Below, in pieces: positions 22,964 to 57,790 of a stretch of 64,000 bases of DNA. Below the pieces are notes generated by a model, which had not been told where the DNA came from, did no database searches, and saw only the letters and a program-made list of their open reading frames with translations. The first letter of the stretch is position 1. The number at the start of each line of letters is the position of its first letter. The stretch spans positions 250,132 through 314,131 of the forward strand of contig CAZFHY010000001.1 in assembly GCA_964519305.1 (NCBI GenBank). The letters run 5' to 3'. The stretch comes from Candidatus Undinarchaeota archaeon (GTDB lineage: Archaea; SpSt-1190; JASMDC01). Position numbers and translations under genes: made by a program.

Positions 22964-23047
22964 ACCTTCTGATGACACTCGCAAATTAATAAAGCGTACC
23001 ATCATCCAAGTAGGGTAGTTACTCGGGCTTGAGGTGGACGGGGCGCC

Positions 23048-28822: not shown

Positions 28823-28975
28823 GGTTGAGACCTGACTAGCCGGGATGCAGGAGCTTTAAAAAACGAACGGCCCTGTCGTCCCACCCCCAGACCTCCGGTC
28901 AATGGCTCGCGGCCCTCCCAGTAAGGGGTGACCTTCGGAATAATCATAATGGTGTGCTGCAATCATTCAGAGCTG

Positions 28976-29968: not shown

Positions 29969-30004
29969 GGCCGACAAGTTCTCGACTCCGCAACATTATT
30001 ATGA

Positions 30005-31768: not shown

Positions 31769-31785
31769 TGCACGCTATGCGAGTC

Positions 31786-31803
31786 GAACCTTTAAAGAGG
31801 TTC
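31786..31803 (-). promoter_or_regulatory. Palindromic operator-like element overlapping the TATA box
   Basis: GAACCT-TTAAAG-AGGTTC; TTTAAA 23 nt from ATG 31768. Confidence 0.75.
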
Positions 31804-31811
31804 CGCGCCCA

Positions 31812-31863
31812 GCTATGTTCACGGAACCGTCAGGGGAGCTAGCGTCCACCACGATGCCCTCGA
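31812..31863 (-). pseudogene. Relic fragment of the GT2 gene
   Basis: 42/52 nt match to 29823-29874; translates EGIVVDASSPDGSVNIA versus EIIVVDDCSTDGSVDIA. Confidence 0.8.
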
Positions 31864-31874
31864 CCTGAGTTAGA

Positions 31875-33638
31875 CTATAGCTCGCGGAGACCCACGATAC
31901 GCCAGAGGGCGAGTTCCCGGAAATCCGTTGGCCCATCGGGCCGTCCGCCGGCGACCGAGTGGCCGGCGATGCGCTCCAGCTGGAACGAGTCGTGGACCAT
32001 GGCAGCAGTGCGCGGCGTCTCAGTGTACAACCGCTCATAGAAGTACACGCATCGTCCATCCGCTAATAGACCTACGATGTCATCCCGATGTCGTGCCACG
32101 GCACCCGGGACGGCAGTGTTGCCCTCACCCACAACCCCCTTCGAATCGACCACCACTCTCCTATCCCAGAAGTACCCGGTCTCGATGGATGTCTCGTACA
32201 TGATGAAGCACTCACGGCCCACCAAAGGCTTCCACTGGTCGATGATGCTCACTTCCATGGCGTAGGTTTCCCGCAAGGGGCTGGGGATACCGTCTGCCGT
32301 GATGACCGCGGGGTAGAGGACGGTCACGAGAACTGCACCCGCCATGCCCGCCACCACCGTATGACGTCGTTCAGTTCCGTTCCCACGCCATACGGTCCAC
32401 GCTAGAAGAGCAAGCGGTAGAGCAAGATGGATGACCGTGAATGTAGATCGGACTCCTGACTCCAGCTCCAGTCCGTAGAAAGGCGCGTAGGCGAAAGGCA
32501 GGTGGGCAAGGCCCGAGAGCACTATGGCCGTGCCCGTGACAGTGAACGATGAGGAGAGAAAAGGTGCACCAGCCCCGCAGAGCAGGGCGAAAGGCACGGA
32601 TGCAGGGAGCATGTAGCGGGGTACGAAACCACCGAAGGTATGGACCAAATGAAGGCCCACGCGCGAGGCGAACCATAGCGCTGCCAGCGCACCGAGCGGA
32701 CCAGTGCCGCGGACCAGTGCCACGATGCCCAACAGCGCCAGGGCCGTGAAGAAGTAGGACTGGTGGAAACCGTCGAGCCAATAGGTGACGTAGCGGACGT
32801 TGCGCGGGATGGCGGTGGGTGAGATACGTGCGGTGAGCGGGACTCCAGCGTACGTGAACTCACCATAATCGATGAAATGGGGGATAAGAAGCGCTGCGAC
32901 GACCAGCCACGGGAGGGGAGAAGGGTACACACCATATCTCCGAATGCCCCATACATACACTACGGCCAGAGGGATCACCGCCAATGGATTCTCCACCCTA
33001 AGAGTTACATGGAGCGCAAATGCAGCTGCAGCCAGCCATGCCCCTGAACGGCGACCGGTACGTACATGTAGGATTGCACCAGTCACGGCCAGGCACTCCG
33101 TAAGGACGGACAACACCTCGGACATCGTGACCGTTGCATACCGCACGTGCATCGGAAGAAGGGCGAGCACAAGCGCAGCCGTCAAGGCCTCGATGTGACC
33201 ACGGTCCAGCATTCGCATGATAAGGTAGACGCAGCCCACGGTCGCGATAGCGGCCACTGTACCCAAGAGGATTGTGGCATGAGCAGTGAAGCCCGCGATG
33301 ACAGACATCAGGGCGAGGAGGATAGGGTAGCCGATGGACTTGAACCCTCCGAACCGTTGACAGTCACCCAGCTCGCCAAGCGAGCAGAGCACGTTTAGTT
33401 TGTGGTGGACCAGTCCCGCTGCCTGGAGACGGAAGTAGGTGTCGTCCATGCTGGGGACTTGTCGGTACGGACTTAGGGCACGCGTGCCTAGAGCGAGCAG
33501 GAGAACGAGAAGAAGAGCGCGCCGTTCCCGCCTGTCACGGGGAAAGAAAGATGCCAGCCCGCGTCGCGAGGCAACTATAGCTACTGCGAGGAGCAGCAGG
33601 TTCGCCAGGGCGACGGGCAGCGCCAGGGGCGACGGCAT
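31875..33638 (-). CDS. GT-C membrane glycosyltransferase, paralogue 4
   Basis: Same length as paralogue 3 (587 aa), colinear, offset 1870 bp. Confidence 0.85.
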   Translation of the reverse strand: MPSPLALPVALANLLLLAVAIVASRRGLASFFPRDRRERRALLLVLLLALGTRALSPYRQVPSMDDTYFRLQAAGLVHHKLNVLCSLGELGDCQRFGGFKSIGYPILLALMSVIAGFTAHATILLGTVAAIATVGCVYLIMRMLDRGHIEALTAALVLALLPMHVRYATVTMSEVLSVLTECLAVTGAILHVRTGRRSGAWLAAAAFALHVTLRVENPLAVIPLAVVYVWGIRRYGVYPSPLPWLVVAALLIPHFIDYGEFTYAGVPLTARISPTAIPRNVRYVTYWLDGFHQSYFFTALALLGIVALVRGTGPLGALAALWFASRVGLHLVHTFGGFVPRYMLPASVPFALLCGAGAPFLSSSFTVTGTAIVLSGLAHLPFAYAPFYGLELESGVRSTFTVIHLALPLALLAWTVWRGNGTERRHTVVAGMAGAVLVTVLYPAVITADGIPSPLRETYAMEVSIIDQWKPLVGRECFIMYETSIETGYFWDRRVVVDSKGVVGEGNTAVPGAVARHRDDIVGLLADGRCVYFYERLYTETPRTAAMVHDSFQLERIAGHSVAGGRPDGPTDFRELALWRIVGLREL

Positions 33639-33655
33639 AGCACGCTGTGCGGGTC

Positions 33656-33673
33656 GAACCTTTAAAGAGGTTC
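33656..33673 (-). promoter_or_regulatory. Palindromic operator-like element overlapping the TATA box
   Basis: GAACCT-TTAAAG-AGGTTC. Confidence 0.75.
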
Positions 33674-33684
33674 CGCGCGCGGGA

Positions 33685-35445
33685 TCATGTTGCGGCGTCC
33701 GTCACGTGATACAGCGCCAGCTCACGATACACTTCTGTAGATTCTGCGACATCCTTGGGCACGATGATCCGCTCGATGACCTCCAGCTCGAACTCTCGGT
33801 GTAGCATCTCGAATGTTACGTCCTGCTCGGGCTGCGTTTCGTAGATGTAAACGCACGCACCGTTCTCCAGGAGCGTACGCACGTCATCACGGAGTATGGC
33901 CACAGTCCCCGACATGGGAAGGTGTGAGCTGAGCATGAGGACTGGGCGTTGCCAGAGGACGCGGTATGGCATTGGACGTGGGACTACTACGACACAGTCC
34001 GGTTTGACGAAGGCCTTCCAGCCATCGATTGTCTCCCGCTCAAGCTCGAAGGCGGTCGAGTAGGTCCGCGGCAGACCGTCCGTCGTCATGTTCGTAGTGT
34101 AGAACGTCATATTAAGGACGAGGCACGTGACCAGCGCCATACCGGCCAGTAATCGCTGACCCCCCCTCGTCCGGATCGCTATCCAGAGGAGGGTGACCGC
34201 AGGGATACCCAGGTGGAGCGGCGTGAGCACCGACATGGTGGATCCCGGTAGCTCGAATCCGTACAATGGGGAGTAGGCGAACGGAAGGTGTAGCAGACCG
34301 GAAAGAACGAGCGCTGCCACAAGCGGTCCGGTGGGCAGAGATAGCGCTGCGGCACCTGCCCCCGCCGCTAAGGCGAAGGGAATGGTTAGCGTGATCATGT
34401 ACCGTGGGATGAACACCGTGTATGAATGGAACAGGTAGATCGTCAGCCGTGTGGTGAACCACCCAAGTGTCAACGCTGCAAATCCCCGGGGTAGACGTCG
34501 CCAGGACGCCCACCCAATCAGTGCCAATGCGGTGAAAAGGAAGGGCAGGAAGTACCCGTCGAGCCAGTAGGTCATGTATCCAACGTTATCGACCACATAG
34601 CGTGGGTGTACTCTGTGTAGGATGCTCTCGTGCTCGCTGACGGACTCGTTGTGCATCTGGTTCCAGTTGTACTCGTCCCAATCCCCGAAATGAGGTGCGG
34701 TCAGCAAGAGGGCGAGCATCCAAGGCAGAATTGTCGGGCGTGCTCGGTACCTCGTGACGATGTACATGAGCGCCATCGGGATCAATGCGAGGGGTGCCTC
34801 CCGGCGAACGGTGACTGCAAAGGCCAGGGATATCGCTCCCAACCATCCCGGTGCTGCCCGCCCGGTGCGTGCGTGGAGGAGCGCTCCGAGCACGGCCAGC
34901 CCCTCGAACAGCACTGACACGACCTCTGGATGGGACACCATGGAGTACCGCACGTGCATCGGGATAAGAGCGGCCACGATGGCGGCATACAGCGCCGTCC
35001 GGTGGTCGCCCGATAGGAGCCGTGCGATTAGATAAACGATTCCGACCGACAGTGTACCGGCCATGGTCCCTAAGGCAAGGGTCGCTGCTCTCGTAAACCC
35101 GAAGAGCATCGAAGACAGGGACAGCATCACCGGGTATCCGACAGGATAGAACATGGCGAAGCGCTGGCAGTCGTCCAGCTGGCCGAATATGCAGAAAACG
35201 TTGAGCCGGTTGACAGCGAGATTGAGCGACTGGTCCTGGTAATACCACTCGTCGTTCCAGTTCAGCGGTTGGTACGGATTGATGACCCTTACCGCGAACG
35301 CCAAGAGAAGCACGAGGAGCAGTTCACGCCGCATGGAGCGAGAGCTGGGAATAGCTCGTGACATCTCCCGACGCGAGGCCGCCAGCGCTACAGCGATGAG
35401 CAGGAGGTTCGCCAGGGCGACGGGCAGCGCCAAGGGCGACGGCAT
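33685..35445 (-). CDS. GT-C membrane glycosyltransferase, paralogue 5
   Basis: MPSPLALP, WNDEWYY, CIFGQLDDC, YPVGYP, PMHVRYS, RRE, PRYM. Confidence 0.87.
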   Translation of the reverse strand: MPSPLALPVALANLLLIAVALAASRREMSRAIPSSRSMRRELLLVLLLAFAVRVINPYQPLNWNDEWYYQDQSLNLAVNRLNVFCIFGQLDDCQRFAMFYPVGYPVMLSLSSMLFGFTRAATLALGTMAGTLSVGIVYLIARLLSGDHRTALYAAIVAALIPMHVRYSMVSHPEVVSVLFEGLAVLGALLHARTGRAAPGWLGAISLAFAVTVRREAPLALIPMALMYIVTRYRARPTILPWMLALLLTAPHFGDWDEYNWNQMHNESVSEHESILHRVHPRYVVDNVGYMTYWLDGYFLPFLFTALALIGWASWRRLPRGFAALTLGWFTTRLTIYLFHSYTVFIPRYMITLTIPFALAAGAGAAALSLPTGPLVAALVLSGLLHLPFAYSPLYGFELPGSTMSVLTPLHLGIPAVTLLWIAIRTRGGQRLLAGMALVTCLVLNMTFYTTNMTTDGLPRTYSTAFELERETIDGWKAFVKPDCVVVVPRPMPYRVLWQRPVLMLSSHLPMSGTVAILRDDVRTLLENGACVYIYETQPEQDVTFEMLHREFELEVIERIIVPKDVAESTEVYRELALYHVTDAAT

Positions 35446-35462
35446 GGCACGCTGTGTGGGTC

Positions 35463-35480
35463 GAACCTTTATAGAGGTTC
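35463..35480 (-). promoter_or_regulatory. Palindromic operator-like element overlapping the TATA box
   Basis: GAACCT-TTATAG-AGGTTC. Confidence 0.75.
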
Positions 35481-35493
35481 CGCGCTCGGCGGC

Positions 35494-37257
35494 TCAGCCC
35501 GCTATGGCCGTCACGCGGTATAGCGAGAGCTCCTGGAGCATCCCGGTGGCCTTTGCATCGTTCGTGGGTACGATTACGAGACCTTGGTGCTCAAGGACAA
35601 AGGAGTCGTGCATCATCCGCCCGTCGATATCAGGCACCCGCTGTGTTTCATAGAGGTATACGCAAGCGCCTTCGGCCAGAAGGCCGGCCACGTCGTCATG
35701 CAATCCGGCAACGGTGTCAGGAAGAGCCAAGTGCGAGGTGCGCATCACCAGTGGGCGCTGCCACAGTGCCCGATAGGGCACAGGACTGGGCACCACAACG
35801 AAGCAGTCCTCCCCCACGAGGACTTGCCATCCCTCGATAGTTGACGACTCCAAGTAGAAGGTCCGGTGGAACGGGGGGATGAGCCCGTCCGCCTGTTCGA
35901 CATTGGGATAGAGCATGGGCAGGAGCACCAGGCCCACCAATAGCGCCACTGCTGTCGCACGCCTTTCTCGACCGATAGCGTGCCGTGCACCCCACACCAG
36001 GAGTGCAAGCGGGACGAGCCCATGGACTATCCCCAGAGGACCGCGCACTCCATAGGGGAGCTCCAGTCCGAACATGCGACTATAAGCGAATGGCAGGTGG
36101 AGCAGGCCGGAAACGAGCAACCCGGTCTTCAGGACACCGGTCGGCCAGGACAAGACGGTCACGGCCGCTCCCGCCATCAGAGCGTAGGGGACCGATAGCG
36201 CGAGCATGTAACGGGGGATGAACACCGTGTAGGAGTGGAAGAGGTACGGGGCGATCCGTGTGACGAACCACAGCACTGTGAGCGAGCCAATTGGTGCGGG
36301 CAGACGCGACAGAGCAGCAATCCCAATGAAAGCGAGGGCCGTGAACAGGTAGGGCTGGAAGTAACCGTTGACCCAGTAGGTGATGTAGTGCAGGTTCTCA
36401 AGGACGTAGCGTGGATGCACTCGCCGGGCCACGCCATCGTATTCCGCTACGGACTCGGTGTACATCTGGTTCCAGAAACGCTCCGGTGTCTCGGCGATGT
36501 GGGGGATGAGGAGCACAAAGGCCAGCGCCCATGGGAACAACGAGGGTCGCACTCCATGCCGGCTTCCCCAATGATATACCACAGCGACAGGGACCAGCAC
36601 AAGGAGCGCCTCGCGGCGCACCATTGCGGCGAAGGCGAAGGACAAGGCCGCAAGCCACCCAGGGGCGTCACGCCCACTGCGTACATGAAGGACCGCGGCC
36701 AGTACGGCCAGACCTTCGGCGAGCGCGCCAAGGACATCGGGGCGCACTTCGACCGCATAGCGTACATGCATGGGCAGGAGCGCGATTATCAGTGCGGCGG
36801 TAAGGGCGGCACATTCGTCACGGAGCAGGAGGCGGGCCAGGAGATATGCGACAGCGACAGTGGCGGTCCCCGCGAGCACCCCCAACAGACGGGCGGCCGT
36901 GTCTGCGGACCCGGTCACGGCCATTCCGAGGGAGAGGACGAGCGGGTAGCCGATAGGATAGAACATGGCGGTATCTCTGCAGGCGCCGGGCTCACCGAAG
37001 GTGCAGAACGTGTTGAGTCGGTCGATCATGAGCGACTCCGCCTGGTCGTGGTAGAACCACTCGTCGTTCCACATGAGAGGCTCGTAGGGATTGGCGACAC
37101 GTACTCCGAACGCTAGAATGAGCACCAAGAGAAGGATCCGACGTCCGCTTGGATAACCCGGGAGTGCGGCGGCCAGCTGCCGACGTGAAGCAATGAGCGC
37201 AACGGCCGCGAGCAGGAGGTTGAGGAGAGCCGCGGGCAGCGCCAGGGGCGACGGCAT
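35494..37257 (-). CDS. GT-C membrane glycosyltransferase, paralogue 6
   Basis: MPSPLALP at 37257, WNDEWFY, CTFGEPGAC, YPIGYP. Confidence 0.87.
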   Translation of the reverse strand: MPSPLALPAALLNLLLAAVALIASRRQLAAALPGYPSGRRILLLVLILAFGVRVANPYEPLMWNDEWFYHDQAESLMIDRLNTFCTFGEPGACRDTAMFYPIGYPLVLSLGMAVTGSADTAARLLGVLAGTATVAVAYLLARLLLRDECAALTAALIIALLPMHVRYAVEVRPDVLGALAEGLAVLAAVLHVRSGRDAPGWLAALSFAFAAMVRREALLVLVPVAVVYHWGSRHGVRPSLFPWALAFVLLIPHIAETPERFWNQMYTESVAEYDGVARRVHPRYVLENLHYITYWVNGYFQPYLFTALAFIGIAALSRLPAPIGSLTVLWFVTRIAPYLFHSYTVFIPRYMLALSVPYALMAGAAVTVLSWPTGVLKTGLLVSGLLHLPFAYSRMFGLELPYGVRGPLGIVHGLVPLALLVWGARHAIGRERRATAVALLVGLVLLPMLYPNVEQADGLIPPFHRTFYLESSTIEGWQVLVGEDCFVVVPSPVPYRALWQRPLVMRTSHLALPDTVAGLHDDVAGLLAEGACVYLYETQRVPDIDGRMMHDSFVLEHQGLVIVPTNDAKATGMLQELSLYRVTAIAG

Positions 37258-37274
37258 GGCGATGGGAGAAGCCT

Positions 37275-37292
37275 GAACCTTCAAATAGGCTT
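37275..37292 (-). promoter_or_regulatory. Degenerate copy of the palindromic promoter element
   Basis: GAACCT-TCAAAT-AGGCTT, at the same spacing from the ATG. Confidence 0.6.
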
Positions 37293-37300: not shown

Positions 37301-37864
37301 TCATGTCCTGTCCTCGTCCCCGCGGGGGGAGAACCGCATCATGATGACGTCCGGGCCAACCCGACGCTCCTCAAGCACATATCCGTGGTCCTGAAGCACA
37401 CCCGTTATGTATCCAGCGAGGAAATTGGCGAACACGGGCTCTTCCACTGCGTTCTGCGCGGTGATTTCCAGAAAGCCCTCCTCGCGCTTCCAAGAGAGGA
37501 GCGGGAACCATCCGGCGAACTTGTAGGCGTCCCGGAACACCTCCAAACAGTGCTTGACGTTATGTACGTCAGGGAACACCGTCTTGTAGAAGGATAGGAA
37601 GTTCGAGCTCTTTCGGGTACCCAGCTTGAAGGCCCCATCCTCATCGATCCCCTCGCGGTATGCCTCCAGGATATCACGTACGTCCGAGGCGCGTAGCGTG
37701 ACGCCGTGCTGAAGCTTCATCCACTGCTGGTAGCATACTGTATCCCCGAGCGATGTGGTCAGGGCCCTGTGCCGGTTGGAGAGGTTGAAGGCCTCGATGA
37801 GCACGTCGAGGATGTCAACCGCTCGCTTGTCGGCCGAGAAATTGAGTTGTATGCGTGCCGCCAC
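37301..37864 (-). CDS. Hypothetical protein, possible regulator (RHH-like N-terminus, V4R/HNOX-like C-terminus)
   Basis: RIQLNFSAD strand followed by two helices; FANFLAGYITGVL C-terminal motif. Fold assignment is inference. Confidence 0.6.
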   Translation of the reverse strand: MAARIQLNFSADKRAVDILDVLIEAFNLSNRHRALTTSLGDTVCYQQWMKLQHGVTLRASDVRDILEAYREGIDEDGAFKLGTRKSSNFLSFYKTVFPDVHNVKHCLEVFRDAYKFAGWFPLLSWKREEGFLEITAQNAVEEPVFANFLAGYITGVLQDHGYVLEERRVGPDVIMMRFSPRGDEDRT

Positions 37865-37889: not shown

Positions 37890-38075
37890 TTTAATATTTT
37901 TCTATCTTCGTCGGAGGCCGTAACGCCCTTATAATTTGTTATAACCGTCGTTACGTGGAGTATAGTGCTTATTACATATTTAATGCTAAGTACTACTCAT
38001 AAATTTAGATTAATAGCTTATTAAGACGCACTAATGCACTATTCTCGCTTTAGAGAATCCTTAATTCTCAATACC
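37890..38075. other. AT-rich non-coding island with several palindromes
   Basis: Sharp drop in GC; TTATAA-N4-TTATAA, TTAATA-GCT-TATTAA, and an 11-bp imperfect inverted repeat at 37958-37968 / 38036-38046. Confidence 0.6.
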
Positions 38076-38891
38076 TTTAGGGAAGGCTTTCCGTCCCTCG
38101 GATGTGGAGCTGCACGGAGGCGGGGCCGGCTGGACGACCATCCGGTCGAAACCGCGGTCTTCAAGGTCACGAGGAAGCACCTTATTGCGGTAGAATACCG
38201 TGTTCCCGCGGAGCAGGAGAGGGAGAGGCATGCTCTTGTGGGTGAGGGTGAAGGCCAGGTCCCGGCACTCGCGCTCGCAGGGCAGGATCCCGAGCTCGTC
38301 ACGGGCCTCAGGCTTGGTACAGGCACGGGATAGGCACAGACGTGTTGTTGTGACGTACACCCAAGGAGTATAGATACTACCTTTCATGGGAACCTCGTCC
38401 TCCGCCAAGGAGAAACCGATCCCTTGGAGGGGATTGTCGAACTCCGCACGAGTTACCCCCCGCTCGTGCAGGAACTGTCGATAGCTCTCCTGAGAGAGCG
38501 GTGAATCGCGAAGATATGCCTGCGCCTCCTCGGGAAGTCGTTCGATCACGTTTATCAGGCGCGGGCCACGCCGCTGGTAGGTGAGGATCCGGCCCATGAT
38601 GGGAACGTGGTCCTTCAGGGATGCCAACAGCCCCCAGTCGTTGAAGACTACCTCGGAGCCGGAGGGAAGGACGTCCAGAAGCTTCCGCACCTTCGACAGT
38701 CCCGTGTCCGTGAGATAAGGAGTGACCAGTGTGAGGGGGATACTTGCGTCCTTTGCCGCCTCCAGTCCGCGTGATAGCTCCTCCGGTGTGGGGAGGTTGC
38801 GCTCGCAGAACTCATTTCCGAGGTACACACGTTCATAGCCCTCGGGGATCCCTCCGACGGGGACCGTTGAGAGCAGCACGGCGCGCTCCAT
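38061..38891 (-). CDS. U32-like partner subunit (UbiV-like), copy 1
   Basis: VYLGNEFCERNLP, TLVTP, VFNDWG, TTTRLC, PCEREC, RGNTVF; TGATG coupling to the upstream U32 gene. Confidence 0.8.
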   Translation of the reverse strand: MERAVLLSTVPVGGIPEGYERVYLGNEFCERNLPTPEELSRGLEAAKDASIPLTLVTPYLTDTGLSKVRKLLDVLPSGSEVVFNDWGLLASLKDHVPIMGRILTYQRRGPRLINVIERLPEEAQAYLRDSPLSQESYRQFLHERGVTRAEFDNPLQGIGFSLAEDEVPMKGSIYTPWVYVTTTRLCLSRACTKPEARDELGILPCERECRDLAFTLTHKSMPLPLLLRGNTVFYRNKVLPRDLEDRGFDRMVVQPAPPPCSSTSEGRKAFPKGIEN

Positions 38892-40027
38892 CAGCATTCC
38901 ACCTCTTTGCACCAGTCAACCTCAGGATAATAGCAGGAATCAATGTCGCATGGCATACCAAAACGCCTCCGATAATCTTTCTTGACGCGGGTGAAGAACG
39001 TATCCCGGTCAGGTTCCTCCTCAATTAAGTATTTAATCAGTTCGGCGACGAACCGCGTATCCGCCACCTTCCGGGCCGTGGGGAACACACGGCCGACGAT
39101 CTTGAAGCTGTCCACGCCGGCCTGCCATAGGTCATAGAGCGCACAGGCACCACAATTCGCTTGCACCTTGCGACCGAGGATCGACCGCACCCGGTCTGAA
39201 GCGGAGCCGGCCACAGGACCCTTACCGGTAACGGAATAGGTGTACCGACATGGATTGTAGACATGAGAAATAGCGCGCTCGATCGGGCCAGTCTCCGTGG
39301 CCTTTCGGGGGAGCCGGGCACCAATGGCGAGAGCGTGGGGATGGAAAAGCACACGGACTAGCAACCGGCCAAGGTAGGGATGGATCGGGTGAAGGACGTC
39401 CTCGTGGCCATGTTGGAATGTACAGTAACCCTCGATATTGCGGCAGCGGCCGTTTAGCACGAACGCTTCCAGCTCGATATCAGGTACTTTCTGACGGATG
39501 TGTCTTATCTCGTCCGTGGTTAGCTGGCGCTCAAGTATGATACGCGAAAGGCCGAGCTCCTTGAGGAAGCTAACACTCTCGCTGTTGAAGGTTGACAGAC
39601 CTGTGCTAGCGCAGATCCGGGCATCCGGATAGGCCTCCCGTGCCGCGAGTATGAGCCCGATATCGGAGATGATCACCGAGTCGATGTCACACGCTAGAGC
39701 ATCACCGAGCCATTCGAGGACACGCTCGTGCTCACCGTCCACGTACACGTGGGCGTTAAGGGCGAGGTACGCCTTCACGTCCCGGTCATGAGCTTCCCGG
39801 ACCACCTGACGGAGCTCGTCTAGCCCGTTGAGGGAAGCGAAATCCATATACCGGCGGTTGAATGCGATAACAGTGGAAAAATCACGTTTCCATGTACGAG
39901 GGAGCACACCGCAGTATATCTCGGTCGCACCTGCGTCGACCAGAGGCCCTACCTCAGATGGATCGCTCAGGGGAGCGGCGAGGGCGGGTCCTTGTGAACG
40001 CGCACCCCTTCCGTGCCCCGGTGGCAT
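38891..40027 (-). CDS. Peptidase U32 family Fe-S protein (UbiU/TrhP-like), copy 1
   Basis: GATEIYCG, RIILERQLT, EAFVLNGRCRNIEGYC, CGAC, FKIVGR. Confidence 0.88.
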   Translation of the reverse strand: MPPGHGRGARSQGPALAAPLSDPSEVGPLVDAGATEIYCGVLPRTWKRDFSTVIAFNRRYMDFASLNGLDELRQVVREAHDRDVKAYLALNAHVYVDGEHERVLEWLGDALACDIDSVIISDIGLILAAREAYPDARICASTGLSTFNSESVSFLKELGLSRIILERQLTTDEIRHIRQKVPDIELEAFVLNGRCRNIEGYCTFQHGHEDVLHPIHPYLGRLLVRVLFHPHALAIGARLPRKATETGPIERAISHVYNPCRYTYSVTGKGPVAGSASDRVRSILGRKVQANCGACALYDLWQAGVDSFKIVGRVFPTARKVADTRFVAELIKYLIEEEPDRDTFFTRVKKDYRRRFGMPCDIDSCYYPEVDWCKEVEC

Positions 40028-40050
40028 GCGCTGGCATCGTAGTAGCAATT

Positions 40051-40058
40051 ATTTAAAT
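40051..40058. promoter_or_regulatory. Bidirectional palindromic TATA box
   Basis: ATTTAAAT lies 24 nt from ATG 40027 (-) and 23 nt from ATG 40081 (+). Confidence 0.7.
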
Positions 40059-40080
40059 CAAGCTTATGGCGGTTGAAGCG

Positions 40081-40944
40081 ATGTCCTCGTCCTGGAGGAT
40101 GCTCCGTTGCCCACGCGACAGCTCACCCCTCGAGGAGGTGGACGAAGGGTTGCGGTGTCCCTCATGTTCATGCACCTTTCCCGTGGTGGACGGCGTGCCC
40201 GACCTCCTTGTGGACGAACCAGGTAACGAACTTGATAACTACTTCCGCCGTTGGCGTACCAAGAGCATAGAGGACCCTAACACCAACGACTACGCCCGAG
40301 CGCAGCGAGGGACCTTTCTTGAACGTACCTTCCACAACCGTCGCCTGGCCAGCTATCGGCGCCTTATGACGAAGGCCACTCAGGGACGCGAGCTGGGACT
40401 AGTGGTTGATCTGGGTTTCGGCACCGGTTATACGATTGATATCCATCCCCCGTGCGAGCGCCTCATCGGCCTGGAAATCAGCCGAGACAACATCGCCACC
40501 TGTCGCAAGAACATGGGAGAGCGATGCCCATCGCTTGTGCGAGGTGACGTGTACTCGCTACCCTTCGACGACGGTTCAGTGGACATGCTCTCAATGTTCT
40601 ACGTGTTCCATCGCCTCCAGCAGGACATGCTGATGAGAGAAGTCAAGCGGGTGCTACGCCCCGGTGGCGTCTTCGTGTTCACCGCCCCCTGGCACTATGC
40701 CTACCTATGGAACCAAGGTATACGGCGGTTGTTCCACCGCATAGGCATCTTCTCGGACTCGCCCGAGATGCGTATCTCCTTCGACGTCCCCATCCTGCGG
40801 TTCAGGACGTCTGATGTGCGTTTCCTTGCCTACGAGGTCCCGGGTATCCGGTGCAAGGAGGCCTACGTGGTCCCATCGCTCATGGAGATCCATGTAGTGT
40901 TCGTCAGGGAGGACAAACCCGAGACGTGCAAGTGCCCCGGTTGA
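40081..40944 (+). CDS. Class I SAM methyltransferase with an N-terminal Trm112-like domain
   Basis: LRCPRD...CPSC...FPVVDGVPDL; DLGFGTG; LPFDDGSVD; RVLRPGG. Confidence 0.9.
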   Translation: MSSSWRMLRCPRDSSPLEEVDEGLRCPSCSCTFPVVDGVPDLLVDEPGNELDNYFRRWRTKSIEDPNTNDYARAQRGTFLERTFHNRRLASYRRLMTKATQGRELGLVVDLGFGTGYTIDIHPPCERLIGLEISRDNIATCRKNMGERCPSLVRGDVYSLPFDDGSVDMLSMFYVFHRLQQDMLMREVKRVLRPGGVFVFTAPWHYAYLWNQGIRRLFHRIGIFSDSPEMRISFDVPILRFRTSDVRFLAYEVPGIRCKEAYVVPSLMEIHVVFVREDKPETCKCPG

Positions 40945-40950
40945 AATCCA

Positions 40951-42687
40951 TCATTCTCCAGCAGGCCCCACTCGATAAAGAGCCAGCTCGGTGGAAGCAC
41001 CGAAGGCCTCGACCCATTTCAGCGAGATGGGGACCGTATCAATTCGCTCCAGACTTAGACTGCTGCCGGCCAAGGCGTCGCGTGCGTTCGCGGTCCCCTG
41101 GGAGTCGTAGAGGTAGACGCACTCGCCCCGGTCCACCAGAGCGATCACGTCCCGGACAAGCTCTTCGCCGGTCGTAGGCAGAAGGAAGAACGACTCGACA
41201 TGCACCATCCGACGCCCCCAAAGGTGCTCGGCGCGCACGGGGACCGAGGCGACCACGTGGCACGACGGCTCCACACCGTTCCGCCACCTAGCCACAGTAC
41301 GCTCCTCGAGAGCGAGATAATCACGTACGTCGGGGGGGATGCCATCCCCCACAGCCACACGTGGGTAAAGGAGGACTATGAGAATCGCACCTATGGTGGC
41401 CAGTGCCGCCAGCAACCGTCGTTCCCGACCCCCTGCCCGTCCTGCCGCCCAGAGAAGGAAGGCAACGGGGAGGAGCAGATGGATAGCGTATAGGATTGCC
41501 CTCGCTCCAGCGTCCAGCTGGAGCCCGAACATATCACCATAGGCGAACGGTAAGTAAGCGAGTCCCGAGAGGAGGATGGCTGTGGCGATTGACCGCTGTG
41601 AACAGGTAAGGGTGCGTGCGCCCAGGCCACAGGCGATGGCGAAGGGGACCGAGAGGCCGATCATGTACCTTGGCACGAAGAACATGAAGTCGTGAAGGAG
41701 GAACACTACAAGACGGGCCGACCACCAGAACGTCACCAAGAGCGTCAGTGTGCTTGAGCGACCGGCGAGAGCGACCATCCCGAGCGCCGCAAGGGCAGTG
41801 AACAGGAACGGAGTGAAGTATCCATTGAACCAGTAGAGGACATAGTCCAGATTGCGTGCCAGAGAGGACGTCCCGAGACGATCAGTAACATCATTATACC
41901 CCATGCTCATCTCGAACCATCCTGCCACGTACGGCGTCAGGAGCACTAGCGCTACGATCCAAGGGACCGGAGAATACCTGACACCCTTGCGCCGGCCCCA
42001 CCAGTACACCATCATGAGCGGGACAAGGACGAGAGGATTCTCCTTGCGGACTGTCATGTGGAAGGCCAAGGATGCTGCGGTCAGCCATGCTGCGGAGGAG
42101 CGCCCCGTTCGGACGTGAAGGGCCGCACCCAGAACGGTCAGGCACTCGGTGAGCACTGAGAGCACAACGAGCCGCGTAGTGGCGCCGTACCGCAGGTGCA
42201 TCGGGAGAAGGGCAAGTATGAGAGCCGCCCAGAGCGCCGACTGATGGTCCCGGAACAGGATTCGCACGAGCAAGTAGACCAGAGCTATGGTGAGCGTACC
42301 ACCAAGCACACCCACCGTCCTTGCAGCCAGTTCGGTGAATCCGAGGATCGACGAGGTCAGGCCCAGCACAAGTGGGTAACCGATGCCGTCGAAGGTCGCG
42401 AACTGTTGACAATCGCCCATCCGGCCACGGACGCAGAAAGCGTTGAGGCGGTGGTGCACAAGGCCTTCGGCCTGTCCCACGGGGTACCATTCGTCAAGCC
42501 AGAGCAGGTGATGGTAAGGGTTCACCGCCCGCAGCACCAGACCCAGGAAGAGCACCGTGAGCAGGGCACGACGGCCCGAGACAGTGTTTGGTAGATAGGC
42601 CGACAACTCTCGGCGCGAGGCGACCAGCGCACCAGCGATGACCAGAAGGTTCACCAGGGCGAAAGGCAGCGCCAGAGGCGACGGCAT
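40951..42687 (-). CDS. GT-C membrane glycosyltransferase, paralogue 7
   Basis: MPSPLALP, WLDEWY, CVRGRMGDC, GYP, LPMHLRY, RKEN, PRYM. Confidence 0.87.
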   Translation of the reverse strand: MPSPLALPFALVNLLVIAGALVASRRELSAYLPNTVSGRRALLTVLFLGLVLRAVNPYHHLLWLDEWYPVGQAEGLVHHRLNAFCVRGRMGDCQQFATFDGIGYPLVLGLTSSILGFTELAARTVGVLGGTLTIALVYLLVRILFRDHQSALWAALILALLPMHLRYGATTRLVVLSVLTECLTVLGAALHVRTGRSSAAWLTAASLAFHMTVRKENPLVLVPLMMVYWWGRRKGVRYSPVPWIVALVLLTPYVAGWFEMSMGYNDVTDRLGTSSLARNLDYVLYWFNGYFTPFLFTALAALGMVALAGRSSTLTLLVTFWWSARLVVFLLHDFMFFVPRYMIGLSVPFAIACGLGARTLTCSQRSIATAILLSGLAYLPFAYGDMFGLQLDAGARAILYAIHLLLPVAFLLWAAGRAGGRERRLLAALATIGAILIVLLYPRVAVGDGIPPDVRDYLALEERTVARWRNGVEPSCHVVASVPVRAEHLWGRRMVHVESFFLLPTTGEELVRDVIALVDRGECVYLYDSQGTANARDALAGSSLSLERIDTVPISLKWVEAFGASTELALYRVGPAGE

Positions 42688-42704
42688 GAAGCGTTGAGGG
42701 AGTT

Positions 42705-42722
42705 GAACCTTTATAGAGCTTC
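42705..42722 (-). promoter_or_regulatory. Near-perfect copy of the palindromic promoter element
   Basis: GAACCT-TTATAG-AGCTTC. Confidence 0.7.
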
Positions 42723-42772
42723 CGCGCGGCGACCCGCGAACCCTTATAACGCTTTACGACCGAGTAACCGAC

Positions 42773-44437
42773 GTGTGCGGCATCGCCGGGATCGCAGGAT
42801 TCCAGGACGACGGTCTCCTCGATAAGATGGTGACGTCGCTCACGCACCGCGGTCCAGATGACGTGGGTACGTTCCACTCAAATGATCTCTCATTGGGAGC
42901 ACGTCGACTGGCGGTCATCGACCCGGCCGGGGGACACCAGCCCATGGTGGGCGAGGATGGTGATACTGCCGTGGTGCTCAATGGTGAGATCTACAACCAC
43001 GTACAGCTGCGTGCATGGTTGGAGGGGCGAGGCCACGAGTTCTCCTCAGCATGTGACACCGAGGTAGTCCTCCACGGCATCGAGGAGGAGGGGACGGCCT
43101 TCCTCTCGCGCATGGAGGGGATGTTCGCCCTGGCAATGTGGGACGGGCCACGGTTGGTGCTTGCTCGCGACCGGCTTGGGATCAAGCCAATGGTGTACAC
43201 CCAACGCGGCAGTGACCTTCTCTTCGCCTCCGAGGTCAAGGCTCTGTTCAAGGATCCCGAGCTTACACGGGAGGTCGACCGCGAGGCGCTGGCACAGCGG
43301 TTCGTGCTCGGATACCCGCTTGATGGGCGCACGTTGTTCGCCGGCGTCCGCTCGCTCGCCCCGGGCACGGCACTGGTGTGGGACGCACGCTCAGGATCAG
43401 TCGTGGATAAGACACCTTTCTGGGAACTGCCTAAAAGGACTGTGGAGTTAGTTGACCCCGCCACTGCAGCAGATGAACTGGCAACTGCCCTGGAGGATGC
43501 CGTGCGCTCACAGCTAGTAGCGGACGTTCCCCTGGGCGCCTTCCTCTCCGGTGGCGTTGACTCGGCCCTCATCGCTGCCTTGGCCAACGAGCATATGGAC
43601 ACGCCATTGCGCACCTTTACACTGGGCGAGAGCCACAATGATCCGGATGTCATCGCTGCGCGTGCTGTGGCCGAGACCGTGGGCTCCGACCACACCGAAC
43701 TGGTCGTCGCTCCCGAGGACGTAGCGGCCCTCGTCCCGCGGTTCGTGCTCCACATGGAGCAACCCAACTACGAGTCCGTGTTCTTCCTAGCGCTCGCCGA
43801 GGTCGTGCGCCGACGCATGACGGTTGCACTGTGCGGCCAGGGCGCTGATGAGCTATTCGGTGGCTACCCGCGATACTCCTCCCCCCGACGCTACGGTGCC
43901 GAGGTGCGATGCACACTTCGCCGGATCGCCTCTAGCGCGTCATGGGTGGACGGTCTCCACACCAAGATGTCGCTCATACGCACATCCGGTGACCTGATGG
44001 ACCACGAGCTCGGGCCCCAGCTCGCTGCGTTCCAGCTCAGTGTCGTGGACCGTGCGTCCATGGCAGCAGGGCTCGAGGTCCGTGTCCCTTACCTCGCCAC
44101 TCCCGTCGTGGAACTCTCACGACGGATGGACACGCGACTTATGTTCGAGAGCGGTGCGGCGAAAGCAGTGCTACGACGTGTGGCACGGAAGAAGCTCCCC
44201 CCCAAGATCGCGGACCGGCCGAAGCGTGGTGCAGGACCGTTCACCACGCCCAGGGGCGCCCTCATCTTCGAGCAGGAGGCATGCGATCTCATGGATGACA
44301 AGCGCGTGGCCCGCCACCCCTATCGCAAATTCTTCCGGAGGCGGAGCGAGCTTGTTTGCATGGACATCCTCGCCCACTCGTTGATCGAAGGCGACGGTCA
44401 GCTCCCTGATAAGTTCACACCGGGAGACTTGTACTGA
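42773..44437 (+). CDS. asnB: Asparagine synthase-like glutamine amidotransferase
   Basis: MCGIAG, HRGPD, NGEIYNH, DRLGIKP, LSGGVDS, GQGADELFGGY. Confidence 0.92.
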   Translation: MCGIAGIAGFQDDGLLDKMVTSLTHRGPDDVGTFHSNDLSLGARRLAVIDPAGGHQPMVGEDGDTAVVLNGEIYNHVQLRAWLEGRGHEFSSACDTEVVLHGIEEEGTAFLSRMEGMFALAMWDGPRLVLARDRLGIKPMVYTQRGSDLLFASEVKALFKDPELTREVDREALAQRFVLGYPLDGRTLFAGVRSLAPGTALVWDARSGSVVDKTPFWELPKRTVELVDPATAADELATALEDAVRSQLVADVPLGAFLSGGVDSALIAALANEHMDTPLRTFTLGESHNDPDVIAARAVAETVGSDHTELVVAPEDVAALVPRFVLHMEQPNYESVFFLALAEVVRRRMTVALCGQGADELFGGYPRYSSPRRYGAEVRCTLRRIASSASWVDGLHTKMSLIRTSGDLMDHELGPQLAAFQLSVVDRASMAAGLEVRVPYLATPVVELSRRMDTRLMFESGAAKAVLRRVARKKLPPKIADRPKRGAGPFTTPRGALIFEQEACDLMDDKRVARHPYRKFFRRRSELVCMDILAHSLIEGDGQLPDKFTPGDLY

Positions 44438-44478
44438 CCGGTCTGTACGGTCGGTGTTCTAGGGACATCGTGGTCCCG

Positions 44479-44955
44479 TTACATAAGGTAGCCGCTGTTC
44501 GCTGCGAGGAAGGGTGCTTCGTACTGGAGGAAGTAGTCGTGGACCTCGTTCCCCATGCCCATGACGTGGTAGCCCTCATGCATGAGCACTTCTGCTATGG
44601 CCGACGCACCATATCCGAGCATGACGGGTGACACGACGACCTCGCCGGGCGTTGCCGTCGTGGTCTGGCCCCCAACGTAGGTGTGGGCGAGACCGCCAGA
44701 TGCGCCAAGACTGGGATTGTACGTAGGCAGCCCTTTCTGGCTGGCCATCTCTCTGTACATCTCACAGGCCTTCTCCCAGGTCCTGAGCGGCTCGAGCGCC
44801 CTGTCATGGAAGAACGCCGCCGTGACGTCTTCGTACGCGGTCGAGGTGGCGTAACGATCGTTGAGATCGAAGGATTCGCCGTCAGTGTAGGAAAGGACCT
44901 TCTCAAGGTCGTCACCGTCCCGATAGCTGGATCTCTCGAAATCGTCGTTATGCAT
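44479..44955 (-). CDS. Small protein with a HExxH zincin-like motif
   Basis: AEVLMHEGYHV followed by NE; start ATG 44955. Confidence 0.65.
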   Translation of the reverse strand: MHNDDFERSSYRDGDDLEKVLSYTDGESFDLNDRYATSTAYEDVTAAFFHDRALEPLRTWEKACEMYREMASQKGLPTYNPSLGASGGLAHTYVGGQTTTATPGEVVVSPVMLGYGASAIAEVLMHEGYHVMGMGNEVHDYFLQYEAPFLAANSGYLM

Positions 44956-45109
44956 GCTCGTGCCGGATTTTGTGCCATTCCCCCTATAAAAACCTTTCCC
45001 CGGGAACCGTCGTGCGTACCGGCAACTAACGCAGAACAAGGAGCAGGCAGGAACGCATTATTGAAGAGCTCAAGTAGTTCTATATAGCTATCCCCTATAG
45101 GAATGTCCG

Positions 45110-46207
45110 ATGGATATCCTTGCCCCTGTCAACAGGGCGGATGAGGTCGAGCAGCTCATCCGTTCGGGGGCTGCGGAGATCTATTGCTCGGTGCTCTCAC
45201 CCCAATGGCGGGAGCGCTATAGCAATGTAGGGAGCATCAGCAGGGAGGAGTTCACCCTCTCGTCCCTTCGCTCCTACGAGGAGCTTGAGCAGGTCACGTC
45301 CATCGCCCACGACAACGGTGCCCGTGTTTCCGTAGCGTTCAACCAGGATTTCTACTCATCCAAGCAGCTACCCCTCGTGCTCAAGGAGGTCGACCAGGCC
45401 GTCGGCGCAGGGATAGATAACCTCATCATAGCCGACGTGGCGCTCATGGCAACGCTCCGGGACCGTGAGGTGGAGTGCGATGTGCACGCAAGCTCCATCG
45501 CAGCTGTTTTCAACGCTCGTGCGGCCCGGTTCCTCCAGCGCCTGGGTGTATCCCGACTCATCCTCCCGCACCATCTCACCCTGAACGAGGTGCGAACGCT
45601 CGCCGAGCGGGTGCCCGATATACCCCTTGAGGCCTTCGTGCTAAACGCCCGGTGCCCCAACGTCGAGGGATTCTGTGGTTATCTCCACGGCCTCCTCGAG
45701 ATCGCCTACCCGCGCCGGGCAGGAGCCCTATTCAGCGTCCTCGGGAGCAGATGGGGGGCCGCCCGGAGCACTATCGTAGGCGCTCTCCTCCGGCTCCCCC
45801 GATGGTCACAGCGTCTCGGTCCGCTGGCACATCACGCATCGCTCTATCTCTGTCCCAACGCCGCCGCTGTGCGCGTATCCTGCCTCGAGGGGGACCATGC
45901 TCTCGCCCCCGCTATCGAGGAACGATTCGGGATGGACTGGTGCCCCAACGTGGGCGGCATCGGTTGCGGCGTATGCGCTCTGGGGATGCTGCGCGATGCG
46001 GGTGTCAGCGTGGTCAAGGTACAAGGGCGTAACTACCCGACAGCAAAGAAGCTGGCGGACGTCCGGTTCTTGCGCTCAGCGCTCGATGCTCTCGAGAATC
46101 TTAAGGGTGGGGACACTTTCCATGAGCGGTGTCGCGCCCTGTACTCCGACAGTTATGACCGGCCATGCTCACTTGCTGAGTGCTACTGGCCTGAGGAGGT
46201 GCGGTGA
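45110..46207 (+). CDS. Peptidase U32 family Fe-S protein, copy 2
   Basis: MDILAP, GAAEIYC, EAFVLNARCPNVEGFC, CGVC, VKVQGR, CYW. Confidence 0.88.
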   Translation: MDILAPVNRADEVEQLIRSGAAEIYCSVLSPQWRERYSNVGSISREEFTLSSLRSYEELEQVTSIAHDNGARVSVAFNQDFYSSKQLPLVLKEVDQAVGAGIDNLIIADVALMATLRDREVECDVHASSIAAVFNARAARFLQRLGVSRLILPHHLTLNEVRTLAERVPDIPLEAFVLNARCPNVEGFCGYLHGLLEIAYPRRAGALFSVLGSRWGAARSTIVGALLRLPRWSQRLGPLAHHASLYLCPNAAAVRVSCLEGDHALAPAIEERFGMDWCPNVGGIGCGVCALGMLRDAGVSVVKVQGRNYPTAKKLADVRFLRSALDALENLKGGDTFHERCRALYSDSYDRPCSLAECYWPEEVR

Positions 46208-47007
46208 TGGAACGGGCAGTGCTAGTTTCCCGCGCACCGCTCCTCGACACGCTCGACTGGACCGGGTACGACCGGCTCTACCTGGGCAACGGATACTGCC
46301 AACGGCTCATCCCCACGCCCGACCAGCTCAGGTCCGCCCTGGACCGGGCGGACGACGCACATATCCCGCTCACCCTTGTCACTCCGCCCGTAACCGATAA
46401 TGGGCTCGACGATCTTGGCCCCGTCCTTGATCTCCTACCAAAAGGTGCAGAGGTTGTGGCCAACGACTGGGGTGTCATCGACCTTGTCGCCGAGGCTGGA
46501 CGGCTCCAGCCGGTTGTCGGCGGCCTTCTTCACAAGCAGAAGCGCGGACCGCGCATCATGATGGCGAAGGACCTTCTCCCTCCAGAGGCATGGGATCGAT
46601 TTCGCACGTCGAACATGGACGTGGTCGCTATGCGCGAGATCCTGGCCTTGTACGGGATCAAACGGGTCGAGGTCGAGAATCCCTTCCAAGGCGTGTCGCT
46701 TGACCTTGCCGGGGGCGAAAAACCACTCTTTGGCTCGCTCCACCATCCCTATGTCTGCGTCACTATGTCGAGATACTGCCTATTAGCACTGGCCTCGACC
46801 AGGCAAGGCCTGCCAGAATGGGGCATCTACCCCTGCTCCCGTATGTGTACAAATTCCAGTTTCCAGCTCGACCATCCGACCATGGGCGTCCCACTCTACC
46901 TCAAGGGATGTGCCGTATTCGTAAAGAACGATGCACTCCCCGGTGATAAGGAGCTGAAGGACATGGGCATCGACCGGACAGTGGTATCGCAGATACCACC
47001 TGCATGA
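46207..47007 (+). CDS. U32-like partner subunit (UbiV-like), copy 2
   Basis: LYLGNGYCQRLIP, TLVTP, VANDWG, MSRYC, PCSRMC; TGATG coupling. Confidence 0.8.
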   Translation: MERAVLVSRAPLLDTLDWTGYDRLYLGNGYCQRLIPTPDQLRSALDRADDAHIPLTLVTPPVTDNGLDDLGPVLDLLPKGAEVVANDWGVIDLVAEAGRLQPVVGGLLHKQKRGPRIMMAKDLLPPEAWDRFRTSNMDVVAMREILALYGIKRVEVENPFQGVSLDLAGGEKPLFGSLHHPYVCVTMSRYCLLALASTRQGLPEWGIYPCSRMCTNSSFQLDHPTMGVPLYLKGCAVFVKNDALPGDKELKDMGIDRTVVSQIPPA

Positions 47008-55376: not shown

Positions 55377-55504
55377 GACCTCTTGGGCTTGAGGGATAGA
55401 TATCCTTTAAAGCCTTTTGCTATCCGACCGAGAACCGGTTCTATTCAACATATAACGTTTGGGTGACCTCTGCACCTAGCGACACCGACGCAGATGGTGA
55501 CCTC

Positions 55505-57711: not shown

Positions 57712-57790
57712 AGCCGTATTACCAAAGGTGCTACTTGTTTTTAAATATTGACAGGTGTTATATAATACGCAGTACATAGAGGAGAGTATC

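Follow-up and report, generated by a model that had tools for sequence, protein, structure and literature searches.

Two coupled gene pairs in an archaeal glycosylation locus

Which reaction do two neighboring pairs of U32-like genes carry out in an archaeal glycosylation locus where no quinone genes stand beside them? The pairs lie in a 64,000-nucleotide (nt) stretch of the genome of a Candidatus Undinarchaeota archaeon (assembly GCA_964519305.1, contig CAZFHY010000001.1, positions 250,132 to 314,131 of the forward strand), which was analyzed as a whole and is referred to here as the window; coordinates are window positions unless a contig handle precedes them. Pair 1, on the minus strand, consists of a gene for a large U32 subunit (L1, 38891..40048) followed by one for a small four-cysteine subunit (S1, 38061..38891, 276 amino acids, aa). 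Pair 2, on the plus strand, has the same composition (L2, 45110..46207, 365 aa; S2, 46207..47007, 266 aa). The initial annotation of this locus described two pairs in opposite orientation joined by TGATG, and in both junctions the TGA stop of L and the ATG start of S indeed share one base. The large proteins are 35% identical to each other (E = 1e−65) and the small ones 44% (E = 6e−74). We propose that each pair encodes a heterodimeric iron-sulfur (Fe-S) U32 enzyme, an O2-independent oxidase or hydroxylase that would tailor an intermediate of radical-SAM or glycan pathways. By analogy with characterized U32 systems we rate this reading slightly above an even chance.

The setting agrees with its earlier description as an archaeal glycosylation locus. 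The small-subunit rRNA scores 1508 bits on the archaeal model versus 1157 bits on the bacterial model, and TFIIB is encoded in the window. Between 21 and 57 kb the window contains eight PMT_2 (GT-C) genes, GT2 and GT4 glycosyltransferase genes, an AsnB gene, a methyltransferase gene and three radical-SAM genes. This island also holds a gene with DUF362 and 4Fe-4S ferredoxin domains, 2 kb from pair 2. The absence of quinone genes nearby was likewise confirmed for the 48 open reading frames (ORFs) of the window that were scanned, none of which carries an SCP2, UbiA or quinone-pathway domain.

The large subunit is a U32 protein with seven conserved cysteines

Both large proteins pass the Pfam cut-off for Peptidase_U32 (PF01136, 22.4 bits), L1 with 110.1 bits (E = 1.3e−31) and L2 with 99.9 bits. 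In NCBIfam, TrhP is the model that L1 matches best (E = 9.6e−26), at scores far under its cut-off (NF011996; 90.6 bits for L1 and 67.3 bits for L2 vs. 534). On the UbiU model (NF047963, cut-off 440 bits) L1 reaches 80.4 bits and L2 84.2 bits, over the N-terminal half of the model only, and neither has the DUF3656 domain that accompanies Peptidase_U32 in RlhA. Among PDB sequences, the L profile matches 5d88 alone (E = 3.8e−6).

All of the motifs quoted in the initial annotation are found in the translations of L1 and L2, respectively: CRNIEGYC and CPNVEGFC, CGAC and CGVC, KIVGR and KVQGR, and CDIDSCYY and CSLAECYW. To place the cysteines we aligned the window proteins with their paralogues in the same genome and with matches of at least 250 bits from 80 loci of other genomes, dropping fragments below 250 bits or shorter than 290 aa. 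Seven cysteines are conserved in L: a CX6C motif, a third Cys, a CxxC and a C-terminal Cx4C (C182, C189, C248, C286, C289, C353 and C358 of L2). Five of them occur in 65/65 rows and two in 64/65, and the family also keeps D, N, R, E and H residues. The canonical U32 Fe-S motif, CX6CX15CX3/4C, is incomplete in L, which has no Cys 3–4 residues after the third one; the CxxC stands 29–47 residues past it. The AlphaFold2 (AF2) model of L2 has a mean predicted local distance difference test score (pLDDT) of 74, which falls below 50 over residues 182–283.

The small subunit is predicted to be a divergent U32-like barrel

The small proteins are absent from the domain libraries. Neither S1 nor S2 matches any Pfam family even at E ≤ 10, while E. 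coli UbiV reaches 38.3 bits on PF01136 in the same library; NCBIfam has no match for either, and its UbiV model (NF047965, cut-off 275 bits) gives none at E ≤ 0.1. The term 'U32 pairs' used in the initial annotation therefore holds for the large proteins and finds no Pfam support for the small ones. A word-indexed search with S returned 84 relatives, of which all the named ones are called 'hypothetical' and none has a Pfam domain. The family is nevertheless large: a profile search of 1.84 billion representative sequences found 2,317 members at E ≤ 1e−3, 1,897 at E ≤ 1e−10 and 938 at E ≤ 1e−30.

Four cysteines (C29, C186, C205 and C209 in S1 numbering) are kept in 88/88 rows of the S alignment, together with E80, N84, R250 and several near-invariant Arg. 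Their pattern, C-x156-C-x18-C-x3-C in S1, has the UbiV-type architecture of a first Cys far upstream followed by C-x(12–18)-C-x3-C. According to the account of UbiV in PMC6747719, its [4Fe-4S] cluster was found by experiment to be bound by C39, C180, C193 and C197 (CXnCX12CX3C), so that the middle spacing is 18 residues in S1 versus 12 in UbiV.

The AF2 model of S1 (pLDDT 91) is a predicted TIM barrel. Compared with 48,161 chains of known structure, its best match is 5d88, the U32 protein Mk0906 (Z = 11.2, root-mean-square deviation 4.2, 196 residues aligned). Profile-profile alignment of S against L with hhalign gives E = 5e−4 and a probability of 31%, with 76 columns in register, and PF01136 is present on 37% of the members of the Atlas neighbor cluster of S (score 0.82). 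The S profile found among PDB sequences only an irrelevant short-chain dehydrogenase (E = 0.057). Remote kinship of S to U32 is thus suggested by the alignment to L and by the predicted fold. In our reading, S is a highly diverged barrel of the U32 type and may work like UbiV, although it cannot be filed as UbiV.

The two subunits are predicted to form a tight heterodimer

Complex prediction for L2 with S2 gave an ipSAE interface score of 0.94 in 3/3 runs, versus 0.00 for the best control. The ipSAE mark is reached by 116/157 solved complexes and 2/215 mismatched pairs, counts that are approximate for this case because we used our own alignments. The runs have at least 96% of their contacts in common, and the partner is modelled at a pLDDT of 92. 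The predicted interface involves residues 183–199, 235–272 and 354–365 of L2 and 184–207 and 213–226 of S2, and includes Cys-bearing segments of both chains. A search of the PDB by sequence found no hetero-U32 complex, 5d88 being the only match, which makes it improbable that the prediction reproduces an already solved pair. L2 and S2 are therefore predicted to bind as a tight heterodimer, in line with the heterodimer expected in the initial annotation.

Seven pairs in one genome and a family spread over anaerobes

The window pairs are two of several in their genome. We identified 11 L paralogues, seven S paralogues and one classic 707-aa U32 protein, arranged as seven adjacent L/S pairs (six with L upstream of S, L>S, and one in the order S>L), one L-L tandem and four L genes without S. 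The TGATG junction is found in 4/6 of the L>S pairs; the other two have spacers of 1 and 5 nt. The L-L tandem (C4:167406-169661) consists of two large U32 genes head to tail with no small partner, and belongs to a clade of four S-less L (support 100). Such head-to-tail genes may encode an L-L' heterodimer in place of L/S.

The L tree, an unrooted quick IQ-TREE search over 41 rows with five reference rows and several long branches, places all 36 L rows on one side of a branch with a Shimodaira-Hasegawa-like approximate likelihood ratio test (SH-aLRT) support of 98. On the opposite side are E. coli UbiU, UbiV, TrhP and RlhA and the 707-aa U32 of the same genome. The new U32 subfamily anticipated earlier thus appears in this tree as a clade of its own, outside the RNA-hydroxylation clades represented by E. 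coli TrhP and RlhA. According to the summary of Kimura et al. 2017, a tree of 3521 U32 motifs contains 12 U32 subfamilies (PepU32#1-6 and others; PMC5727448), and L may belong to one of the uncharacterized PepU32 groups among them.

The L genes of the source genome fall into at least three lineages. L2 groups with the copy on contig C6 (support 100) and L1 with the copy on C13 and the four S-less L (support 82), so that neither window pair has the other as its closest paralogue. The nearest paralogues of S1 and S2 are the same as those of L1 and L2, which indicates that pairs were duplicated as units and that the window pairs are not a recent tandem copy.

Among 31 related genomes, S occurs only in the source genome and its one same-genus relative, with seven copies in each; it was not found in the other 29 (completeness 72–100%). 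Farther afield, with one genome taken per species, 486 stretches encode an S relative. Their hosts are Thermodesulfobacteriota, Chloroflexota, Bathyarchaeia, Hel- and Hadarchaeota, Methanosarcinales, Woese-, Nano- and Iainarchaeota, Actinomycetota and Verrucomicrobiota. Our counts for foreign loci refer to the 80 loci kept of these 486 stretches. S adjoins L on the same strand in 52 of the 80 (38 L>S, 14 S>L), and the remaining 28 S genes have no adjacent L. Recurrent ORFs upstream of such lone S genes, which form two clusters, match neither the L nor the S profile.

Gene contexts link the pairs to radical-SAM and sugar-tailoring genes

The pairs of the source genome sit among radical-SAM and B12-radical-SAM genes and sugar-tailoring genes (DegT, hexapeptide transferase, epimerase, GFO/IDH/MocA, GT2, PMT_2). 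The genome has 77 radical-SAM matches, and 5/8 of its U32 loci lie within 7 kb of one, versus 1.77 expected (P = 0.016, 20,000 random placements); the nearest radical-SAM gene to pair 2 is 6 kb away. Beside the C13 pair, at a distance of about 2.6 kb, we also observed bacterial-type RuvB and RuvA genes in this archaeal genome (C13:1439-3083).

Radical-SAM-rich islands recur around at least 16 of the 52 paired foreign loci, counting three recurrent radical-SAM clusters. Other settings are repeated as well. In Thermodesulfobacteriota the order is lipoate ligase, radical SAM, S>L and DnaJ, and elsewhere an epimerase, LPG_synthase_TM, GT2 and a cupin precede S. In Chloroflexota, Bathyarchaeia and Hel- and Hadarchaeota, L>S closes an operon in which two FAD_binding_4 genes are combined with one CCG gene (GlcD/GlcF-like), with electron-transfer flavoprotein (ETF) genes beside it. 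The products of these FAD_binding_4, CCG and ETF neighbors are candidate electron acceptors for the U32 enzyme.

A second recurrent association is with methyltransferases. Of the best 150 S representatives, five are longer than 400 aa and each of these is fused to a class I SAM methyltransferase; one of them (1220 aa) joins B12-radical SAM, GT1, S and methyltransferase domains in a single chain. In the window, a methyltransferase gene stands beside L1; its resemblance to a fused S-methyltransferase is a generic class I likeness (E = 0.002). Both the fusions and this neighbor fit a hydroxylation followed by methylation of the new hydroxyl group.

Two chorismate mutase matches and a chorismate synthase gene in the source genome mean that prephenate can be made. 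The chorismate synthase gene (C2:187137-188207) is 700 bp downstream of the S>L pair, which is located between it and an aspartyl-tRNA synthetase gene, and a DAHP synthase gene is near S in five foreign loci; either placement could be due to chance.

Comparison with characterized U32 systems

U32 Fe-S proteins are described as unique among known enzymes in drawing the oxygen of a hydroxyl group from an organic compound, prephenate, with three known substrates (ubiquinone precursors, tRNA U34 and rRNA C2501) and most subfamilies uncharacterized (as presented in PMC10990095). All of the characterized members are tied to hydroxylation in that account and in the one given in PMC11574389. A literature search on the L/S family, on U32 pairs in archaea and on U32 proteins in radical-SAM or glycan clusters found no paper.

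The closest parallel is UbiU-UbiV (E. coli YhbU/YhbV), the O2-independent, prephenate-dependent heterodimer that hydroxylates ubiquinone. As in that system, a large and a small U32-type gene lie side by side, their products are predicted to form a heterodimer, and the source organism is an anaerobe able to make prephenate. L has the CX6C of UbiU and a later Cys that MAFFT aligns to UbiU C232, and S resembles UbiV in the placement of its cysteines. There are also clear differences. L has seven conserved Cys, the CxxC and Cx4C being additional, versus four in UbiU as given in PMC6747719, and forms a separate clade. The scan of 48 window ORFs, which did not extend to other parts of the genome, showed neither UbiT/SCP2 nor quinone genes. 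Finally, L/S occurs in archaea and in non-proteobacterial anaerobes, whereas UbiTUV is restricted to Proteobacteria that make ubiquinone, according to the distribution reported in PMC6747719.

TrhP (YegQ; tRNA ho5U34) and RlhA (YdcP; 23S rRNA ho5C2501) have in common with L a Peptidase_U32 domain with CX6C. Both are presented as Fe-S dependent, prephenate-linked hydroxylation factors (PMC6599085, PMC5727448, as far as these describe them). They are single long proteins, RlhA with DUF3656, while L is short, has a separate partner in S and lacks the fourth Cys of the CX3/4C. The only solved U32 structure, Mk0906 of Methanopyrus kandleri (5D88), is like the window proteins archaeal and is both the best structural match of S and the only PDB match of the L profile; it differs in being a single chain of about 250 residues, with neither function nor partner subunit known.

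A heterodimeric Fe-S oxidase or hydroxylase as the proposed function

Taken together, these features outline a mechanism. L would be a divergent Peptidase_U32 TIM barrel in which the CX6C...C part of the U32 cluster motif is joined by four further conserved Cys, and S a very divergent U32-like barrel whose four invariant Cys follow the UbiV layout. Made by coupled translation, the two would form a tight heterodimer with Cys-bearing loops of both chains at the predicted interface. If the complex acts like UbiU-UbiV, TrhP and RlhA, it would carry out an O2-independent two-electron oxidation, most likely by hydroxylating its substrate with oxygen taken from prephenate; methylation would often come next. 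Its target would be an intermediate made in radical-SAM or glycan tailoring pathways. We infer Fe-S binding, hydroxylase chemistry, prephenate use and the substrate link to the glycan island from these parallels.

Several observations weigh against this proposal. The Fe-S content, activity and substrate assigned to L/S are drawn from comparison with other systems. The missing canonical fourth Cys and the poorly modelled Cys region make any count or typing of the clusters in L tentative. The structural match of S to 5d88 does not stand out, since further TIM barrels score within 1 Z of it (CutC, for example, at 10.8), and Foldseek of the S model against the PDB finds only generic TIM barrels (template modelling score ≤ 0.37). 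The hhalign comparison of S with E. coli UbiV, which places S C29 on UbiV C39, has E = 0.022, and that with a UbiV profile of 12 rows, shallow because all rows are at least 72% identical to E. coli UbiV, has E = 0.048 and a probability of 1%; over E. coli UbiV, UbiU and this profile together, E is 0.02–0.05 and the probability 1–2%. Not every S is paired (28 of the 80 foreign S genes lack an adjacent L), contexts of L/S differ widely between lineages, and 10 kb separate pair 1 from its nearest radical-SAM gene. U32 enzymes are known to act on aromatic or heteroaromatic rings, and no such ring is evident in the glycan island. Lastly, FAD_binding_4 and CCG genes run into L>S in the same direction, often with ETF genes adjoining, in 20/52 paired foreign loci.

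These operons fit electron transfer just as well as oxygen insertion, and they provide the main competing account. L/S could be a redox module that passes electrons between a substrate and a partner (radical-SAM enzymes, or FAD/CCG dehydrogenases with ETF), or it could catalyze a dehydrogenation, reduction or dehydration without inserting oxygen. The 11 conserved Cys of the heterodimer, more than two four-Cys clusters need, are compatible with such a role, as are the association with radical-SAM genes, which need a reductant, and the nearby DUF362 and ferredoxin-domain gene. However, both subunits keep a whole TIM barrel and many invariant polar residues, more than a wire would need; the hydroxylation common to all characterized U32 Fe-S proteins and the recurrent methyltransferase fusions, which fit formation and then methylation of a hydroxyl, also argue against it. 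We consider this account unlikely. If L/S do prove to be electron carriers only, the practical gain would be better annotation.

An insert of the large subunit and the membrane-lipid hypothesis

The initial annotation had proposed a different substrate. It suggested that the pairs may hydroxylate a membrane-bound substrate, a lipid or lipid-sugar, at two positions, and that a hydrophobic and basic insert after the second Cys of L anchors the enzyme to the membrane. Spelled out further, each pair would serve one of the positions, and the substrate could be a polyprenyl-phosphate glycan carrier, for example. The strings quoted for this insert (YLGRLLVRVLF; ALFSVLGSRW...GALLRLPRW) are present in the translations. 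Alignment of the L family shows a gap between the second and third Cys of 15–23 residues in 43/65 rows and of 38–58 in 22/65, with L1 and L2 among the latter. The long form occurs in 9/11 paralogues of the source genome; bacteria and one Woesearchaeote have it too, for the most part near radical-SAM genes. The long inserts are homologous, with a common R/K-R-L-P-R/S motif, and the insert therefore appears, on its sequence, to be an old conserved element of many bacterial homologues. We considered whether it might be an adaptor domain common to neighboring proteins and rejected this, because a hidden Markov model of the insert matches only the nine long L paralogues in the genome (next best E = 0.24).

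The insert is amphipathic and basic, with a hydrophobic moment (muH) of 0.53–0.56, about two standard deviations over the protein mean, and net charges of +2 and +6. The amphipathic character expected for it is thus real, but the insert contains no transmembrane stretch; the most hydrophobic 19-residue window of the protein is in the barrel core. In the predicted complex, where the insert (residues 190–247 of L2) is modelled with low confidence, its ends (L2 195–199 and 235–245) touch S. With its conservation in 22/65 L, including bacterial ones, these features do not support a membrane anchor, though the insert may bind membranes peripherally.

For the lipid substrate itself, the location of the pairs is suggestive: around them are eight PMT_2/GT-C enzymes, which draw on lipid-linked sugars as donors, and next to them is a 720-aa ORF, hydrophobic and without a family. 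The UbiU-UbiV system acts on a prenylated lipid as described in PMC6747719, and the origin of the two pairs from different paralogue lineages would fit two specificities. Yet the same family is found in FAD_binding_4/CCG/ETF operons, with lipoate ligase, radical SAM and DnaJ, and in radical-SAM clusters, including bacterial ones with long-insert L and no GT-C genes. The five other L/S pairs of the source genome are in other settings, and no SCP2/UbiT-like lipid carrier was seen among the 48 ORFs scanned. Together with the contacts predicted between insert and S, these contexts make hydroxylation of a membrane lipid at two positions improbable.

RNA and peptide substrates

The family to which L scores best, TrhP, raises the further idea that the pairs are RNA-modifying hydroxylases like TrhP or RlhA, or a two-protein form of them. 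Conserved Arg residues in S and the pair adjoining the aspartyl-tRNA synthetase gene could be read in this way. Against it stand the TrhP scores far under the cut-off, the lack of DUF3656 in L, and the branch (SH-aLRT 98) that separates L from E. coli TrhP and RlhA and leaves the separate 707-aa classic U32 of the genome among the reference sequences. Seven pairs and four extra L genes in tailoring islands are also hard to square with one or two RNA sites, and we regard an RNA substrate as very unlikely. Least credible of all is that the pairs are peptidases of the collagenase PrtC type, perhaps processing a peptide made by the radical-SAM genes: the U32 name, source labels reading 'putative protease' or 'collagenase-like PrtC family protease', and the nearby HExxH-like ORF and AsnB homologue point that way. 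On the other side, the strict conservation of the Cys sets speaks for Fe-S chemistry, and a precursor peptide was not seen. AsnB exceeds the curated threshold for asparagine synthase and not the one for lasso cyclase, and protease and oxidase members of U32 are treated as not yet separable by sequence in the review PMC11574389, as far as its discussion of the family goes.

A wider role for L/S enzymes

If the pairs are Fe-S oxidases or hydroxylases as proposed, a more general hypothesis can be formulated, which we put forward as possible but, taken as a whole, doubtful. L/S would be a general and ancient O2-free system of anaerobic archaea and bacteria for oxygen insertion or oxidative tailoring, whose substrates are neither quinones nor RNA but products of radical-SAM and glycan pathways, to be methylated afterwards. 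Unlike UbiU, L would have a second cluster, possibly held by three Cys, for binding the substrate; the FAD_binding_4/CCG/ETF neighbors in Chloroflexota and Bathyarchaeia would be the sought electron acceptor; and the seven copies in the source genome would decorate surface glycans or lipids.

Even in its narrower form, the proposal would make the two-subunit UbiU/UbiV design widespread outside Proteobacteria and suggest that archaeal glycan and radical-SAM islands carry out oxidative tailoring without O2. With S comes a family of partner proteins, over 2300 representative clusters strong, which domain libraries miss and which is consequently annotated as 'hypothetical'. The FAD/CCG/ETF operons and the methyltransferase fusions make the electron acceptor and the follow-up chemistry testable. 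The source genome, with seven pairs and four partner-less L genes, has two of the pairs flanking a conserved methyltransferase/AsnB block.

Genes around the two pairs

L1 is 385 aa long when read from TTG 40048; ATG 40027 is the likelier start and gives 378 aa. A TTTAAATAA box in 40049-40065, between the divergent L1 and methyltransferase genes, is 28 nt from this ATG, which suggests a leaderless L1 transcript and a promoter region common to both genes. The methyltransferase (40066..40944, plus strand) is a class I SAM enzyme (Methyltransf_11, E = 1.5e−16) with an N-terminal Trm112-like zinc ribbon (Trm112p, E = 3.5e−5); its UbiE/COQ5 match remains below the cut-off (19.7 vs. 20.1 bits). Next come a PMT_2 (GT-C) membrane glycosyltransferase paralogue of 578 aa (40951..42687, minus strand, PMT_2 E = 3.4e−10) and, between the two pairs, a glutamine-hydrolysing asparagine synthase, the AsnB-type amidotransferase (42773..44437, plus strand), with Asn_synthase and GATase_7 domains and 403.8 bits on TIGR01536 (cut-off 267). 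A 186-aa ORF divergent from L2 (44479..45039, minus strand) contains an HEGYH string of the zinc-peptidase-like HExxH type and has no Pfam match at E ≤ 10. Directly downstream of S1, a 187-aa ORF (37301..37864, minus strand) has no Pfam match at E ≤ 10 and none in NCBIfam. It is followed by a PMT_2 (GT-C) glycosyltransferase gene (35494..37284, minus strand, E = 7.3e−13), the first of a tandem run that reaches upstream to 30005. An Rfam scan of the window returned no match.

The order of these genes is largely conserved in the nearest public record, a related genome whose S1 is 91% identical: S2<L2, the 186-aa ORF, AsnB, the methyltransferase, L1>S1 and the 187-aa ORF. An ORF of the size of the 578-aa PMT_2 gene was not found at the corresponding place in that locus. 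The eight paralogous PMT_2 (GT-C) genes of the window (526–612 aa) are located in 21167-37284, 40951-42687 and 55463-57043, four of them uninterrupted in tandem at 30005-37284. At the edge of the glycosylation island, a 1463-aa ORF (57755-62146, plus strand) has weak VWA and Ig-like (HYDIN/VesB) matches and is possibly a surface protein.

The source genome measures 3.63 Mb and is 99.8% complete, while the other 15 genomes sampled from its assigned class measure 0.6–1.2 Mb. Only one same-genus genome (3.8 Mb) is comparable in size, and the nearest public record is labelled Candidatus Undinarchaeales. The source genome is either an unusually large member of a small-genome lineage or misplaced. 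It also encodes, at C6:121560-123797, a 745-aa protein with UQ_con, UEV and RWD matches, a eukaryote-like E2 in an archaeon.

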